From positions 1,440,001 to 1,504,000 of the forward strand of contig OZ219926.1 in assembly GCA_964291405.2 (NCBI GenBank): a DNA stretch of 64,000 nt. The letters run 5' to 3'. Below are positions 9,514-33,743 of this stretch, piece after piece (the first letter of the stretch is position 1; each line of letters begins with the position of its first letter). The stretch is from Thermodesulfobacteriota bacterium. GTDB lineage: Bacteria > Desulfobacterota > Binatia > Bin18. Made by a program: the position numbers and the translations under genes. The notes under the pieces were generated by a model. It was given only the letters and a program-made list of their open reading frames with translations, was not told where the DNA came from and ran no database searches.

Positions 9514-10388
9514 ACGATAAAAAAACGGACAAGGGGATTTTGGTGCGGAAGGTGCAATTCGAGTTTCCCGAGGACTTCAAACCTTACTGGAACTCCACCA
9601 AACCGGTATTCAGTCAGTTGGCCAATGCTGCCTCAATGTTCTTACCGTACATGGAACCGTTTATTATTGATTCTATTCGGAAAGCGCTCCCCCACATCAC
9701 CGACCCCGCCCTGCGCGAAGAAGCCAAAGCCTGGATGGGCCAGGAAGCCCAGCACTTTAAACAACACCGGCAGTTTAACGAGGCGTTGATTGCCGCCGGC
9801 TATCCGCAGCTCCGCGAGCGGGAAAAACAGATAGAGCAGGAGTATCAAACACGCGGCAAACGCTCCCTCAAATACCAAGTCGCCTACACCGCCGGCTTTG
9901 AAGTCATGGCTCTGTCGATCGCGCATACGCTGCTCGAACAGCGTGAATATTTCTTTGGCGAAGCCGACCGGCCTGTAGCTTCTATGTGGCTCTGGCATTT
10001 GATCGAGGAAATCGAGCACAAGAATCTCGCCTTTGATGTGTATCAACATGTATATGGCGGGCACTGGTACCGCGCCTACGGCATTGTGTGTGCCCTTATC
10101 CATCAAGTGGGCATGATGCGGGGCACGTATATCGAGTTACTTAAAGCCGATGGACTATGGGGGAAGTGGAAGACGCACTGGGAAATTAAAAAGATTGCCT
10201 TCCGCTTATTCGTCTCCTTCCTCCCACGGACAATCCGTTACGCCATGCCGGGCCATCATCCGTCTCGTGTCGCCAATCCGGAATGGATGAAGGAGTGGGT
10301 CGCGCTCTTCGACAAAGGGGAAGTTGGGCTGACTAAGCTCGATACTACCAAGATGGGCTTGTCGCCAAAGGATATGTTGCCTGCGTGA
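9510..10388 (+). CDS. predicted metal-dependent hydrolase family protein (ferritin-like, ExxH x2)
   Basis: VRKVQFEF..W, LPYMEPFII, GQEAQH..QH..FN, WLWHLIEEIEHKNLAFDVY, PGHHP. Confidence 0.85.
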   Translation: MNDKKTDKGILVRKVQFEFPEDFKPYWNSTKPVFSQLANAASMFLPYMEPFIIDSIRKALPHITDPALREEAKAWMGQEAQHFKQHRQFNEALIAAGYPQLREREKQIEQEYQTRGKRSLKYQVAYTAGFEVMALSIAHTLLEQREYFFGEADRPVASMWLWHLIEEIEHKNLAFDVYQHVYGGHWYRAYGIVCALIHQVGMMRGTYIELLKADGLWGKWKTHWEIKKIAFRLFVSFLPRTIRYAMPGHHPSRVANPEWMKEWVALFDKGEVGLTKLDTTKMGLSPKDMLPA

Positions 10389-14839: not shown

Positions 14840-15262
14840 ATGGCTGGCCGATTAGCCGGAAAAGTAGCAGTGGTGACTGGCGGCAGTTCAGGTATAGGCC
14901 GGGCTACCGCGCAGATTTTTGCCCGTGAAGGGGCCAAGGTTGTTGTGGCCGATGTCGGAGTTGAGGGCGGCGCAGAAACCGTGCGCCTGATTACCGGCTC
15001 GGGTGGAGAAGCAACATTTGTCCAAACCGATGTCGGGCAAATGGAAATCCCGGTGCCGATGACTCAGGCATTAGCCACAGACGGCAAGCTGTATCGGGTC
15101 ACAGCAGACGGCCAACCCCATCTCGTGGCCGCAGGCTTTATCAATCCAACCGGCGTCCTGGTTGTTGATGACGCCGTGTGGGTCTCGGATATCAATGGGG
15201 ACTTTATTGCGGGTAAGCGTGAGCTGCCGGAAGGCTTTGTGGTGAAAGTGCAGGCGCAATAA
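14840..15262 (+). pseudogene. chimeric ORF: SDR N-terminus fused to the C-terminus of a beta-propeller-like protein
   Basis: First 65 aa are SDR (TGGSSGIG..FVQTDV) with no NNAG or YxxxK; after about 15034 it reads GKLYRVTADG..AAGFINPTGVLVVDDAVWVSD. Confidence 0.75.
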
Positions 15263-28169: not shown

Positions 28170-29999
28170 CTACTTCACGATCAGCCCCTCGAAATCGCCC
28201 TGCGCGCGCCAGGCGGCGAGCATATCGTAAAAGGGCACTGCGCCGTCGGGATACTGGGTCTCGATGAAGCCATGCCCTTCGTTCTTCCCCTCGCCGTTGT
28301 AATAGCCCGGCGTACAGGTGTTCTGGTACTCGGTCATAAAGGTCGGGCCGGTCACCAGCTTCACCCACTCGTCCTCGTCCTCAAGGGTAGGCTCAATGGA
28401 CTTTGCGTCACGGGCTTCCACTTGACTAATGAGGTGGGCGATGTGCACGGCCTGCCCATTCAGCATATAGGTGAAGTTGGGCGCGAGGCCGGTCTGGGTG
28501 AGCCCCATGTGGAAGCAGTTCGGAAAGCCGTTGCTCAGAAAGCCGTGATAGGTCTTCATGCCGTCCGCCCAGTAATCGCTCAGCGACAGCCCATCGCGGC
28601 CGTACACCTCGAACTCGGCGCGCCGCGTGTACGCCGTCCCGACCTCGAAGCCGGTCGCGTAGATCAGGCAGTCTATTTCGTACTCGACGCCGTCCACGAC
28701 TACCGCGGTCTCGGTGACGCGCTCGACGCCCTTGCCTTTGGTGTCCACCAGCTTCACGTTGGGGCGGTTGAAGGTCGGCAGGTATTCGTCGTTAAAGGTC
28801 GGGCGCTTGCACCACTGGCCGTACCAGGGTTTGAGTGCCTCCGCGGTCTCAGGGTCGGTGACGGTCGAGGACACGCGCGCCCGAATCTCGTTCATCTTCT
28901 GGTAGTCGGCGATCTCCGACATGATCGCCATGCCTTCGTCGGAAAGATTAGAATCTTCCTTACCCGTGAGCAGTTCGGAAAGTTTCTTGAACAGGCTGGT
29001 CCACTTGTCGCCGACGAGGTCTTCCTCAACCGGAATCCCGGCCAGAATAGAGCAGAAGTTGGTGTTGCGGTAGTCCTGCCAGCCGGGCTTCAGCGTCCGT
29101 ACCCATTCCGGGTCGGTCGGCTTGTTGCCGCGTTCGTCCACCGAGGAGGGCGTGCGCTGGAACACGTAGAGCTGCTTGGCATGCTCGCCCAGGTGGGGTA
29201 CGGACTGGATCGCGGTGGCTCCGGTGCCGATGATACCCACACGCTTGTCTTTGAGTTTGTGCATGCCGCCGGTCGTATCTCCACCGGTGTAGTCGTAGTC
29301 CCAGCGGCTGGTGTGGAAGGTATGCCCTTTGAACTTTTCGATACCTGGAATCGCCGGTAGCTTGGGCCGGTTCAGGGGCCCGCTCGACATGATCACAAAG
29401 CGCGCCCGGAAGACATCGTCGCGGTCGGTGGTAATCGTCCAGTGCCCGTCCTCGTCGCTCCAGCGCGCCTCCCTGACCTGGGTCTGGAAGCAGGCCCGCT
29501 CGTAAAGGTTGAAGTGCTTGCCGATCCGCTGGGCGTGCTCAAAGATCTCCGGCGCAAAGGAGTATTTTTCCTTGGGCATATAGCCGGTCTCTTCGAGCAG
29601 GGGCAGATAGACATAGGATTCGATGTCACACTGCGCCCCAGGGTAGCGGTTCCAATACCAGGTCCCGCCGAAGTCTCCGGCCTTCTCGATGATGCGGATA
29701 TTGGTGACCCCTTCCTTCTGCAGTCGCGCTGCCGCAAGCAGGCCACCAAAGCCGCCGCCAATAATCACCGCGTCGAGTTCTTCTTGCAGCGCGGGGCGGG
29801 TGAAGCCCGGCTCCACATAGGGGTCGGTGTTATAGTGTTCGTGCTGGCCGGTGATTTCCTGATACTGATTGTTGCCGTCCGTGCGCAAACGCTTGGTCCG
29901 CTCCTCGGCGTACTTCTGACGCAGGTCAGCCGGGTCAAAGCCCAGTTCTTCGGGAGTTGGAATGCCGGTCGGTTGGGATGTCTCTACCGCCTCATTCAT
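28170..29999 (-). CDS. type I Baeyer-Villiger monooxygenase
   Basis: [29 protein letters not shown] fingerprint, GTGAT, CKRP, ATGF. Confidence 0.95.
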
Positions 30000-30123
30000 C
30001 TGTCAGCCCTCCTTATTGTCTCCTCGTTGGAGCGTTTCAATTTCTTCGTTAGCGCGGAGTTTGGCATATTGATAAAATTTTGACAATACAAACCCCACAA
30101 GCTGTGTTGATTCCCCCTCGCAA

Positions 30124-30155
30124 CTTCGCTACTGGAGTCCTACTCGATAGCGAAG
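30124..30155 (+). promoter_or_regulatory. stem-loop in the leader of the AhpD-like gene
   Basis: CTTCGCTA / TAGCGAAG outer stem, GAGT-CCT-ACTC inner stem. Confidence 0.4.
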
Positions 30156-30191
30156 CTTACGAGAATTTTCGCTGAGTAAAGGAGCAACGCT

Positions 30192-30773
30192 ATGTGTGCA
30201 ATGAAACGCCTCACCCGTGAGGAACTCCCGCCCGACTTGACCGCGCTGTACGACGAGTGTATGCGCGAGGCCGGGGACGCGCGGTTTGTCGCGGCTGGCG
30301 CCAACGCACCCGAACTGCTCGATTGGTACTTCAACAGCTTCTACAAGCGGGTGTTCTACGAGGGCCGCGTCGATGTGCGCACCAAGGAGCTGCTCCGCCT
30401 CAAACTCTCCAAGACCCACGGCTGCTTTTTATGAAACAGGGTCAACACCGTCTCGGCGAGACGGGCCGGCCTGACCACGGAACAGATTGATGCGCTTCCG
30501 GACGATATCGACAACGAGGTGTTTTCGCCACGCGACCGGGCGGTACTCAAGCTGTGCGAGCAGATGGTGCTCACCAACCTCCACGGGTATATGACCGAGG
30601 AGCTGCATCACGAACTGGCCGCGCATTTCAGCGATGGAGAGATCTTCGAGCTCGGGGTGACGATGGCCGTGCTGTGCGGGTTTGCGAAGTTCCTCTTTTG
30701 CTTTGATTTGGCGGACCGCGAAACCACATGTCCGATCCACCGCCCCGCCGAAGAAATGCGGAGCAGTCTGTGA
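30192..30773 (+). CDS. AhpD/carboxymuconolactone decarboxylase family protein, probable selenoprotein (CxxU; UGA at 30432-30434)
   Basis: ORFs 30192-30434 and 30519-30773 are in the same frame with an open linker; read-through gives KELLRLKLSKTHGC-F-L-U-NRVNTVSARRAGLTTEQIDAL..FSPRDRAVL..FSDGEIFEL, a complete 193-aa CMD-type protein. Confidence 0.88.
30435..30476 (+). promoter_or_regulatory. putative bacterial SECIS element
   Basis: CCGTCTC-GGC-GAGACGG perfect stem (30448-30464); G-starting loop 20 nt after the UGA; possible lower stem GGTCA/TGACC. Confidence 0.7.
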
Positions 30774-30835
30774 TCGATAGGGAAGGAGAGTTGTGACAGC
30801 CTCCCATTAGAAGCCCACACGAGCGAGGAGAGGAT

Positions 30836-31246
30836 ATGACAAAACAAGAGGCGATCGACACGGTGAACAAGTTTATGGGCCTCCTCCTGACGGACTTCCC
30901 CGAGTGCACCAAGCTGCTGGCCGACGATTTCGCATGGGAGAACTTTCTGCCGTCCCATATCCCTTTTGGCGGCCGCTACGAGGGTACGGCGGGGTTGCAA
31001 AAATATCTGGCGCAACTGGCAGAGACCTGGGTGATCGGCGAAGTCGTCTTCCACGATTTTATTTTCGACCCGGAGACGCGCAGGATGGCGGCGCCCGGCG
31101 TAGAAAAAAACGGCCAATCGGTCGTAACGGGGCGCGCCTGCGATATGGCGTTCGTTTGGGAATTCCGATTCGCGGAGGATGGCAAGCTCTCCTATCTGCG
31201 AGAATACAACGACACGGCTGCGATTGGTGGAACGTTCGATAGCTAG
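30836..31246 (+). CDS. SnoaL/NTF2-like protein
   Basis: LLADDFAW..IPFGGRYEG..TGR....FVWEFRF..GK....REYNDT. Confidence 0.85.
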   Translation: MTKQEAIDTVNKFMGLLLTDFPECTKLLADDFAWENFLPSHIPFGGRYEGTAGLQKYLAQLAETWVIGEVVFHDFIFDPETRRMAAPGVEKNGQSVVTGRACDMAFVWEFRFAEDGKLSYLREYNDTAAIGGTFDS

Positions 31247-31302
31247 CCGGACGCTTGCATGCGTGCTGGTTACTCAGAGCATTTGTAGCGGGGAATCCCA
31301 GC

Positions 31303-31953
31303 GTGAAATCAGACAGTGGACAATTGCAGACCGAATTGGCCACCCGAGGGCTTGAGCCGGGCGAGGCGGTCGGGGTCCGGCACCTGATTGAGGCCGCTGC
31401 GGATCGCGTCTGGCAGGTGATCTCTCAACCCGGTCAACTTCCCCGCTATCATCCCTTCTGTCAGGCAACCACGGTGCTCAAATGGCCCGGGGTTGGGGCA
31501 AAGGACACGGTCTCGTACTACAGTGGCGTGCATTACGAGCGCGATTTTGTGAGGTGGATCGAGGGGGTGGGATTTGACATTGAAGTCGGACCGCCCTCAC
31601 GCAAGACGGCCCGTGTGGAGTGGCGCATCACGGCGCAGGGTGAGCGGCAGAGCGAGTTGGCCATTACCGTGATTCCCTACCTGAAAGCGGACTTGTCCGC
31701 CCCTCGGAAGCGGGCCTATCAGCAACGGTTGTTTGGCGACACCATCGCCCAGTACCTCGACAGCGTCGTGCGCGGGGTCGGGTATGTGGCCGCCACGGGG
31801 CAGGCCGTGCAAAAAAATCAGTTCGGTTCGCATCCCCTGTACTCGGATAAGCAGCGCCCCCCAGGCGCCGCTTCCCCGCTGCGCTACGGCTCTGTTATAC
31901 TCGGCCAGTCTCAAGAACGACCAGTGTTGATGTACGGAGGACTATATATATGA
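31303..31953 (+). CDS. SRPBCC/START-like (polyketide cyclase) family protein; start uncertain
   Basis: IEAAADRVWQVISQPGQLPRYHPFC..W.EG.G; ATGA overlap with the BVMO. Confidence 0.7.
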   Translation: MKSDSGQLQTELATRGLEPGEAVGVRHLIEAAADRVWQVISQPGQLPRYHPFCQATTVLKWPGVGAKDTVSYYSGVHYERDFVRWIEGVGFDIEVGPPSRKTARVEWRITAQGERQSELAITVIPYLKADLSAPRKRAYQQRLFGDTIAQYLDSVVRGVGYVAATGQAVQKNQFGSHPLYSDKQRPPGAASPLRYGSVILGQSQERPVLMYGGLYI

Positions 31954-33743
31954 GTGAGACGCAGGAGAAGCCCCTGATTGGCAGCATGAATGGTCTCTCG
32001 AAATCCGGAAAATCGCAGGCGTATTACGATGCTATTAAGCAAAAATTCGCCGAGGAACGCGACTTGAGGCTGCACTACCGCCCGGAGGGCACGGCACAGT
32101 ATACATCCGACCTCTCCGGTTCTTTCGCCAAATACGAGACCGACCCCTACGGCGGGGAGATTATCCCCCGCAAGCCCATCAACGATACGGTCGAGTGCTT
32201 GTTTATCGGTGGAGGATTCTCGGCTCTGCTCACCTCGGCCCGGCTGCGGGAGTATGGCGTTGAGAGTATCCGCATTGTCGAGCGGGGAGCGGACGTCGGG
32301 GGGACCTGGTACTGGAATCGCTACCCCGGGGTGGCCTGCGACGTGGCTTATGATTACCTGCCGTTGCTTGATGAGATGGACTACGTCCCCAAAGACCATT
32401 ACGCCAAGGGACCGGAAATCCTGGCCCACTGCCAAGCCATTGCCAAAAAATACAATTTATACGAGCTGGCGGTTTTCCAGACCACGGTCACCTCAACTAT
32501 ATGGAACGAAGAAGAAGAGATGTGGTACCTCACCACGGACCGAGGTGACCACATGAAGGCCCGCTTCGTGATCTGCGCCAACGGCACGCTGTCCAAGCCC
32601 AAGCTGTCCAAAATTAAGGGGATGGAGTCCTTCAAAGGCCACTCCTTTCATACCTCGCGCTGGGACTATGAGTACACCAAGGAGGACTTGTCCGGCCTGG
32701 AGGATAAGGTCGTCGGCATTATCGGCACAGGGGCAACTGCGGTGCAGGCCATTCCCGGTCTTGGTGCTTCGTCCAAGGAACTGTACGTGTTTCAACGCAC
32801 GCCGTCGTCGATTGACATCCGAGACGACTGGCCGACCGATCCTAACTGGGCACGCAAACTGAAACCGGGCTGGCAGGCCAAGCGGCGCGAACGTGCCATG
32901 CGCGGACCGCGGCTGACCGAGGAGCAGAAGGCCGAACGGGCGACCATGTCTCGTGAGGAAAAAATCCGACGACAGGAGAACGCCAATATCGACTATATGA
33001 TGCGGATTCACAAACGCATTGACGAGGTCGTGAAAGACAAAGTCACTGCCGACGCACTCAAGCCCTGGTATATGTTTATGTGTAAGCGGCCCTGCTTTCA
33101 CAACGACTATCTGCCGACCTTCAACCGTCCCAACGTGCACCTGGTCGATACCCACGGGAAAGGCATCACCGAGATCACGGCGAAAGGACCGGTGTTTGAC
33201 GGGATACAGTACGAGCTCGATCTCCTGATCTATGCCACCGGCTTCGAGGTGCAGAAGACCGGGATTTACAATCAGATCAGAGGAGAAAACGGTCTGGACC
33301 TGAACGATAAATACAGCACCGGCATCCGTACCCTGCTCGGTATTCACTCGCAGAGCTATCCCAATCTGTTTATCATGGGGGGCTACCAGGCCTCATTTCA
33401 GTTTAATCTGACGGATATGCTGCAATCTCAGGGCGACCATATTGCGGCGTGTATCGACTATGTGCGGCGGCATGACTATCAGTCCATCGATGTGATGCCC
33501 GAGGCGGAGGAGTGGTGGGTACAGGAGGTGATCCATCATCGTGGCAAAACCACCCGCAACCAGGACTGTACGCCGGGCTATTACAATTTTGAGGGCGAAT
33601 TTCAGCGCCGTCAGGATGGTAATTATAACGGTGGCTTTCCCAAGTATGTGACGCACTTAAAAGAGGTCCGGGCACGGATGACAGAGAATTTTGTGTTTAC
33701 GAAAGAAAGAATAAATCAGGAGTGCAGCCACCAAAGAAAGTAA
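31950..33743 (+). CDS. type I Baeyer-Villiger monooxygenase
   Basis: [46 protein letters not shown]. Confidence 0.93.
   Translation: MSETQEKPLIGSMNGLSKSGKSQAYYDAIKQKFAEERDLRLHYRPEGTAQYTSDLSGSFAKYETDPYGGEIIPRKPINDTVECLFIGGGFSALLTSARLREYGVESIRIVERGADVGGTWYWNRYPGVACDVAYDYLPLLDEMDYVPKDHYAKGPEILAHCQAIAKKYNLYELAVFQTTVTSTIWNEEEEMWYLTTDRGDHMKARFVICANGTLSKPKLSKIKGMESFKGHSFHTSRWDYEYTKEDLSGLEDKVVGIIGTGATAVQAIPGLGASSKELYVFQRTPSSIDIRDDWPTDPNWARKLKPGWQAKRRERAMRGPRLTEEQKAERATMSREEKIRRQENANIDYMMRIHKRIDEVVKDKVTADALKPWYMFMCKRPCFHNDYLPTFNRPNVHLVDTHGKGITEITAKGPVFDGIQYELDLLIYATGFEVQKTGIYNQIRGENGLDLNDKYSTGIRTLLGIHSQSYPNLFIMGGYQASFQFNLTDMLQSQGDHIAACIDYVRRHDYQSIDVMPEAEEWWVQEVIHHRGKTTRNQDCTPGYYNFEGEFQRRQDGNYNGGFPKYVTHLKEVRARMTENFVFTKERINQECSHQRK

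Follow-up and report, generated by a model that had tools for sequence, protein, structure and literature searches.

A conserved in-frame UGA followed by a covarying SECIS-like hairpin points to an AhpD/CMD-family selenoprotein in Binatia and in distantly related bacteria

AhpD-like and CMD selenoproteins with a CxxU motif, in which selenocysteine (Sec, U) stands in second place, have been on record since 2005, with further reports in 2008, and a 2026 review includes them. The Sargasso Sea study gives 27 AhpD-like (COG2128) and 4 CMD-domain selenoproteins, all CxxU (PMC1088965), and the Global Ocean Sampling study gives 299 "AhpD-like 1" (COG2128) and 70 "AhpD-like 2" (pfam02627) selenoproteins, also CxxU, with AhpD-like 1 among the most abundant selenoprotein families (PMC2398784). 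The 2026 review names AhpD-like (TIGR01926), CMD-like (PF02627), AhpD-related (NF041238), a distant AhpD homolog (NF041047) and ArsM/AhpD fusions, all CxxU (PMC13188914), and BSepDB has a page for an "AhpD-like protein family" (PMC13326102). The gene described here lies in a 64,000-nucleotide (nt) stretch of a Thermodesulfobacteriota bacterium assigned to Binatia (GCA_964291405.2, contig OZ219926.1, positions 1,440,001 to 1,504,000), which we call the window. An earlier sequence-only reading of this DNA, which rightly noted that CxxU AhpD-like selenoproteins exist, had proposed that one of them is encoded here and is split in two by open reading frame (ORF) callers. Our analysis strongly supports that proposal. 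We conclude, with a probability of about 0.88, that 30192-30773 encodes a single 193-residue AhpD/CMD selenoprotein whose UGA is decoded as Sec by means of a bacterial Sec insertion sequence (bSECIS) element at 30439-30472.

Coordinates are those of the window, and features lie on its forward strand unless stated otherwise. Read from the sequence, the complete gene (30192-30773) is one frame of 193 codons including that of Sec81, with a TGA terminator at 30771-30773 and a sole interruption, the TGA at 30432-30434, which is codon 81. The ATG is preceded at a distance of 7 nt by a Shine-Dalgarno-like AGGAG (30180-30184), and in those Binatia orthologues for which that ATG is listed as the first start, aggag likewise occurs 5′ of it. 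Mechanical ORF calling yields two ORFs, 30192-30434 (80 aa) and 30519-30773 (84 aa, GTG start), and it is confirmed that they share one frame and are parted only by the TGA, as the sequence-only reading had it. The residues around the codon are T-H76-G77-C78-F79-L80-TGA-N82-R83-V84-N85, with the CxxU motif H76-G77-C78-F79-L80-U81 at 30417-30434.

The read-through protein belongs to the AhpD/CMD family. It scores 45.5 bits against Pfam CMD (PF02627; cut-off 23) over residues 43-121, and in a phmmer search of the PDB its best match is PA0269/AhpD of P. aeruginosa (2ijc, 2o4d, 7xw1; E 1.9e-10), with Atu0492 (2gmy) also found. In the alignments to both proteins the TGA corresponds to the second Cys of GCxxCxxxH, where it had been placed from the sequence alone, and N85 to the His. 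An AlphaFold model built from 20 orthologues reached a mean predicted local distance difference test score (pLDDT) of 72 and a predicted template modelling score of 0.64, and is weak at residues 28-42 and from residue 171 on (last blocks with mean pLDDT 59, 46 and 42). Foldseek returned 21 matches with E <= 0.001, the best being 7xw1, 2ijc, 2gmy and 6k40; the match to 7xw1 had a template modelling (TM) score to target of 0.84 and a root-mean-square deviation (rmsd) of 2.2 Å, and further matches were AhpD and "peroxidase-related" structures and the CMD-fold debrominase Bmp8. The predicted structure thus has the all-helical AhpD/CMD fold. Among NCBIfam models the nearest is NF053654, a YciW-related (seleno)protein (E 1.7e-10, 40.9 bits against a cut-off of 310), and TIGR01926, the peroxidase-related enzyme, scores 35.7 bits against 81.8, with residues 7-160 aligned to positions 6-160 of the 178-position profile. 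The scores for NF041047, NF041537 and NF045649 are 18.4, 19.8 and 16.3 bits against cut-offs of 110, 510 and 380, respectively.

Relatives were sought in one genome-collection scan covering the species representatives of 185,579 genomes with six peptide patterns; as one of these (KTHGCFLC) encodes the Cys form, the scan did not favor TGA-bearing copies. The scan returned 20 loci, consisting of 19 full-length relatives and one partial copy (L020). Thirteen full-length copies come from Candidatus Binatia/Binatota metagenome-assembled genomes (MAGs) and share 90-94% identity with the window protein, and six share 68-74% identity and come from Actinomycetes (L014, L019), Gaiellaceae (L015), Thermoleophilia (L018) and Myxococcota (L016, L017). 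Below, the 20 sequences are the window plus the 19 full-length relatives, and the 14 Binatia sequences are the window plus the 13 Binatia copies. The TGA is present at the identical column in all 19 full-length relatives, with no other stop or frameshift. A one-base sequencing or assembly error in the window, which has only general possibility in its favor, is negligible as an explanation, as the same TGA appears in 19 independent assemblies that include long-read chromosome-level MAGs.

The coding constraint on the two sides of the TGA was compared next to this conservation. The ratio of nonsynonymous to synonymous substitution rates (dN/dS) was 0.127 upstream (76 codons) and 0.100 downstream (104 codons) of the TGA for the 14 Binatia sequences, and 0.150 upstream and 0.177 downstream for all 20 sequences; dS between the window and the six distant relatives was 0.85-1.5. 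Variable columns at codon positions 1/2/3 numbered 38/28/67 upstream and 54/44/93 downstream. Judged by these substitution patterns, both halves are under equal purifying selection. If the gene were instead a decaying pseudogene, the TGA would have arisen from a TGC or TGT Cys codon of an ordinary CxxC AhpD-like gene, which requires one base change, and the loss of most of the gene in the related L020 would agree with such decay. We nevertheless consider this very improbable, because the TGA occurs in 20/20 orthologues over three phyla with no other stops or frameshifts, dN/dS downstream of it (0.10-0.18) is as low as upstream, and a conserved and covarying hairpin follows it.

The same data bear on the possibility that the locus encodes two small proteins, of 80 aa and of 84 aa restarting at GTG 30519, as a split CMD gene. 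Such genes occur and both ORFs exist mechanically, but the GTG is replaced by a non-start codon in 5/20 sequences. Moreover, across the 28 codons that separate the TGA from the GTG, variation falls chiefly at third positions (13/14/22 variable columns by codon position); these codons encode the conserved N82 and N85 together with helix 79-91 of the modelled fold, and the break would cut the active-site motif at its catalytic residue. We therefore regard a split gene as quite improbable. With equal constraint on both sides and the GTG lost in a quarter of the sequences, none of the alternatives of pseudogene, split gene and sequencing error is tenable, and we take all three, together with recoding of TGA, to be effectively excluded.

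Decoding of the UGA as Sec would call on the predicted bSECIS element at 30439-30472, in which an outer 5-bp helix (30439-30443 with 30468-30472) carries an upper stem (30448-30454 with 30458-30464) closed by the loop 30455-30457. The upper stem is a perfect 7 bp and the apical loop is the 3-nt GGC. The stem begins 13 nt and the loop 20 nt after the TGA; of the hairpin first described from the sequence alone, a perfect 7-bp stem with a G-starting loop 20 nt on, the stem and loop stand, and the 20 nt proves to be the spacing of the loop and not that of the stem. As a chance control, we asked how often a TGA in the window has a similar hairpin after it, defined by an uninterrupted stem of 7 bp or more, a loop of 3-14 nt with G within the first two positions and a spacing of 16-37 nt. 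This holds for 14 of 1986 TGA trinucleotides when both strands are counted, and the focal TGA is one of the 14. The free energy of the 34-nt element is -16.6 kcal/mol (z -2.0; 7/200 shuffles as good), and a 60-nt fold is ordinary against shuffles (z -0.72; 39/200 as good). Judged on the single sequence only, the hairpin is suggestive, and it is the comparative data that decide.

The bSECIS consensus, as given in the 2026 review, consists of a 3-9 nt apical loop and a 4-16 bp upper stem, a G as the first or second loop nucleotide (most often with G or U next), a UGA-to-loop distance of 16-37 nt and a minimum free energy (MFE) of -7.5 kcal/mol or lower (PMC13188914). All four of these properties are found in 20/20 sequences. 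The loop is GGC in all but L019, where it is GTC, and the spacing is 20 nt; the number of contiguous stem pairs is 5-8 (at least 7 in 18/20, and 5 in L007 and L011), and the hairpin MFE ranges from -11.3 to -18.3 kcal/mol.

Covariation was measured on a gap-free MAFFT alignment (A1) that was not fitted to any structure, and RNAalifold, to which no structure was supplied, predicts the same two helices. In the upper stem 98.4% of alignment cells are paired, compared with 26-50% in slid controls. Of its seven pairs three are invariant, one shows change in a single partner and three in both partners, which is the covariation among TGA-bearing homologs that the sequence-only reading had proposed as a check. 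As double changes, seven distinct sequences (Binatia, Myxococcota) have U-A in place of C-G, L016 has C-G in place of U-A, and L015 has G-C in place of U-A. Taken as a whole, the structure scores 0.180 for covariation, where shuffles average 0.098 and 0/500 reach the observed value; both sides are changed in 11 cells (3.8 expected; 0/500 shuffles) and in 4 pairs (1.4 expected; 3/500 shuffles). The commonest covarying pair joins the third base of a Thr codon, where the change is synonymous, to the middle base of an Arg codon, where it yields Gln. These alignments show that the putative SECIS element is conserved and covarying.

We also considered that the UGA could be read as a standard amino acid, through near-cognate insertion of Trp or Cys or a lineage-specific reassignment, rather than as Sec. 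This would agree with the Sec machinery not being observed in the window and the 20 loci. Against it, TGA is the terminator of 20/58 large ORFs in the window, and so the codon is not reassigned in this genome; in addition, the column is that of the family's redox Cys, the hairpin fits the bSECIS spacing, loop and stem in 20/20 sequences, and CxxU is a documented form of the family's selenoproteins. We judge such read-through improbable and retain decoding as Sec. A mechanical scan of the window for other in-frame TGA read-through candidates gave a long list, mostly spurious open frames in this 58% G+C DNA. No second redox-like motif was seen among these candidates, which were judged by eye only, such that further selenoprotein genes are possible.

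The active site retains much of the AhpD arrangement. The acidic residue conserved in AhpD/CMD active sites, here Glu66 (30387-30389), precedes C78 by 12 residues and is invariant in 20/20 sequences, as are H76, G77, C78 and the TGA column. Within N82-R83-V84-N85 (30435-30446) both N82 and N85 are invariant, N85 occupying the place of the motif His. For wider comparison, 14 of 33 distant homologs (~24-37% identity) were sampled from a plasmid collection, and 13 of their alignments span the motif. At the Sec column 10 of these 13 have Cys and one has Thr, while the remaining two retain neither redox residue; together with the 19/19 TGA-bearing relatives, this is what the sequence-only reading had led us to expect, namely Cys or TGA at this position. 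Glu is found at the E66 column in 13/13, and the His column contains His in nine, Arg in four and Asn in none. With respect to the catalytic AhpD pattern (CxxCxxxH with an upstream Glu), the redox spacing and the Glu are present and the His is not.

Asn85 is, in the sequences compared, characteristic of this clade. Its presence had been noted earlier and taken to indicate a mechanistically distinct enzyme. The residue is indeed invariant here and absent from the 13 homologs, but distinctness is unproven, given Arg in 4/13 and Glu at E66 in 13/13. The His is not universal in the family, and its loss alone does not establish another mechanism. A selenol is largely deprotonated at neutral pH, and for this reason it is plausible that the His was lost without a change of mechanism and that a general base may be dispensable with Sec. 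The C-terminal Cys of the TCP motif, also pointed out earlier, is present as T179-C180-P181, in which Cys180-Pro181 (30729-30734) is invariant in 20/20 sequences. Cys170 (FCFDL; 30699-30701) is also invariant, and C162 is Ser in one sequence. Cys180 is a candidate third redox Cys, and sits where the model pLDDT is below 60 (residue 171 on).

Several results weigh against the selenoprotein assignment. A tRNA scan of the 64-kb window and the 20 genome loci gave no match at all, tRNA-Sec included, and no Pfam family recognised as SelA, SelB or SelD was present among 53 scanned window ORFs; these scans covered 64 kb and flanks only and so neither support nor refute the assignment. A Cys-form orthologue was not found in the genome-collection scan despite the Cys-form pattern being among the six used, and the pairing of Sec with Cys therefore rests on homologs of at most 37% identity. 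Rfam gave no SECIS match, either at the gathering threshold over the whole window or at E <= 10 over 30380-30560, where it returned two chance long noncoding RNA matches only. Bacterial SECIS elements are poorly covered by Rfam, and we consider the absence of a match uninformative. In two of the 20 sequences (L007 and L011) the stem contains a C-A mismatch, an intermediate, and the covariation is drawn from related sequences and from a structure first read in the window sequence, though the RNAalifold prediction is independent. In addition, no AhpD-type selenoprotein model of NCBIfam gives the protein a score above its curated cut-off, and the motif His is missing in 20/20 sequences. Lastly, one Binatia genome (L020) deleted the gene while its operon stayed.

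The deletion in L020 (L020:9723-10605) is clean and spans ~503 bp corresponding to window positions 30178-30680. Lost are the ribosome-binding site, the start codon, the Sec-UGA, the SECIS and the first ~163 codons, whereas the last 31 codons and the entire operon around them are kept. L020 is a selenoprotein-loss event caught in a close relative, and because the gene was lost and the cluster kept, the gene is dispensable to the cluster in at least one lineage.

We propose the following mechanism for the selenoprotein. The mRNA 3′ of the UGA at 30432-30434 would fold into the SECIS at 30439-30472, and the GGC loop 20 nt past the UGA would recruit SelB carrying Sec-tRNA(Sec). In M. tuberculosis AhpD, the active site is Cys130-x-x-Cys133-x-x-x-His137 with Glu118, and the second Cys is the nucleophile; by analogy, Sec81 would take the place of that nucleophilic Cys. 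Cys78 and Sec81 would then pass through a selenenylsulfide cycle while reducing a peroxide, sulfenic acid or disulfide substrate. Most likely, the enzyme would clear peroxide or oxidised by-products within a catabolic operon rich in oxygenases.

This role is proposed in view of the genes around it. Upstream on the opposite strand is a divergent Baeyer-Villiger-type flavin monooxygenase (28170-29999, minus strand), which is found in this position in L001-L004, L006, L008-L011 and L020. Downstream, a gene for a 136-aa SnoaL-like protein (30836-31246; SnoaL_2 26.1 bits against a cut-off of 27, a weak match) is probably co-transcribed, and it is followed across short gaps by an SRPBCC/polyketide-cyclase-like gene and then a Baeyer-Villiger-type monooxygenase (31255-33743), which are downstream in L001-L011 and L020 (12/20 loci). 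A promoter and terminator scan of 29900-31400 detected nothing promoter-like, and its single terminator-like site, on the minus strand, is at chance level, so the operon structure is drawn from strand and spacing only. The Binatia cluster runs in the order divergent monooxygenase, Sec gene, SnoaL-like, SRPBCC, second Baeyer-Villiger-type monooxygenase, enoyl-CoA hydratase and Rieske oxygenase, and the neighbour genes of the window share 85-100% protein identity with those of the Binatia loci, which makes a Binatia origin of the window very probable. A SnoaL-like homologue adjoins the gene or its remnant in 14/20 loci, including Myxococcota L016, where it has 76% identity (about 9569-9980) and lies upstream rather than downstream. 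The SnoaL-like protein is a possible functional partner.

Unlike the Binatia operon, L014, L015 and L019 have the Sec gene between a double alpha/beta-hydrolase and an amidase. The hydrolase is a 588-aa two-domain protein (L014:2584-4350, L015:7337-9103, L019:2056-3822) that directly precedes the Sec gene in L014 and L019, with a 271-aa hydrolase ORF intervening in L015. Xanthine-dehydrogenase-type genes lie downstream in L018 and L019. No AhpC/peroxiredoxin gene was recognised in the window. The common setting is one of oxygenase- and hydrolase-rich catabolic clusters. The identity of 68-74% across phyla is far above the expectation for vertical descent and, together with the differing neighbourhoods, suggests horizontal transfer of the Sec gene and its SECIS.

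The window as a whole is unusually dense in oxidative and hydrolytic catabolic genes, with three cytochrome P450s, three Baeyer-Villiger/flavin-containing-monooxygenase-type flavin monooxygenases, two Rieske oxygenase alpha subunits, two luciferase-like monooxygenases, four glutathione S-transferase-like proteins, several amidohydrolases and alpha/beta-hydrolases, an epoxide hydrolase and a hydantoinase A/B pair. One P450 ORF (53430-54338, minus strand, 302 aa) covers positions 240-433 only of a 462-position profile, with the same frame upstream rich in stops, and the gene looks N-terminally truncated or frameshifted. A short-chain dehydrogenase ORF (14840-15262, 140 aa) covers the first 62 of 195 profile positions and is a possible gene fragment.

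A more far-reaching idea, which we put forward tentatively and hold to be unlikely, is that these proteins form a distinct, obligately Sec-containing AhpD/CMD clade with its own invariant set (H76, C78, U81, N82, N85, C170 and C180-P181). Such a clade would have moved horizontally among Binatia, Actinomycetota and Myxococcota, always in oxygenase- or hydrolase-rich catabolic clusters and not by AhpC, and might perform a substrate-specific reductive step, either organic peroxide reduction or a Bmp8-like reductive elimination, rather than peroxiredoxin recycling.

The selenoprotein assignment would correct an annotation, because in Binatia and several MAGs of Actinomycetota and Myxococcota one 193-residue selenoenzyme would otherwise appear as a pseudogene or as two fragments, and it would imply that Binatia and those Actinomycetota and Myxococcota lineages decode Sec. 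The locus also offers a clean natural case of a SECIS within a coding sequence, in which RNA pairing ties a synonymous site to an amino-acid replacement, and the clade is a natural test of whether the proton-relay His of AhpD can be dispensed with once Sec serves as nucleophile. The overall view of bacterial selenoproteomes is unchanged. We found no paper linking Binatia or Binatota with selenoproteins in a search whose sole match was a reference-list citation and whose scope left out supplements and database listings.

Among characterized structures, PA0269/AhpD (7xw1, 2ijc, 2o4d) and Atu0492 (2gmy) are the best sequence and fold matches (TM 0.77-0.84, rmsd 2.1-2.4 Å), with Glu66 and the first Cys aligned. 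They differ in being ~145 aa long, without the ~60-residue N-terminal extension, in having Cys instead of Sec and His instead of Asn, and in sharing 22-27% identity. M. tuberculosis AhpD is the mechanistic template, and its Glu stands 12 residues before the first Cys, as E66 does before C78; here, in contrast, the proton-relay His is Asn, the nucleophile would be Sec and the window has no recognised AhpC partner gene. The Bmp8 debrominase (6ohi, 6ohj), a CMD-fold thiol-dependent reductive dehalogenase, resembles the protein in fold (Foldseek E 3.7e-4) and in a secondary-metabolite or catabolic setting without AhpC, whereas the sequence similarity is insignificant (E 0.53, 17% identity) and the window has no recognised halogenase or halogen-related genes.

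The closest likeness is to known selenoproteins. The AhpD-like selenoproteins (COG2128/TIGR01926; "AhpD-like 1" of Zhang & Gladyshev 2005, 2008), as portrayed in those papers, have in common with it CxxU with Sec second, the AhpD/CMD fold, a size of ~180-190 aa and a bSECIS directly downstream of the UGA. This clade differs from them, in a comparison with published members by description only, in scoring below the TIGR01926 cut-off and in having Asn at the motif His, an invariant H76 and N82 and a C-terminal Cys-Pro. NF053654, NF041047, NF041537 and NF045649 are the nearest curated models, yet the protein is far under the cut-off of each and is a member of none. With its CMD score above the gathering threshold and its CxxU motif, the protein does qualify, by the broad definition in the review, as one of the CMD-like selenoproteins (PF02627; "CMD domain-containing protein" in 2005, "AhpD-like 2" in 2008). 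We suggest that it is a further member, and possibly a new subfamily, of a class known since 2005.

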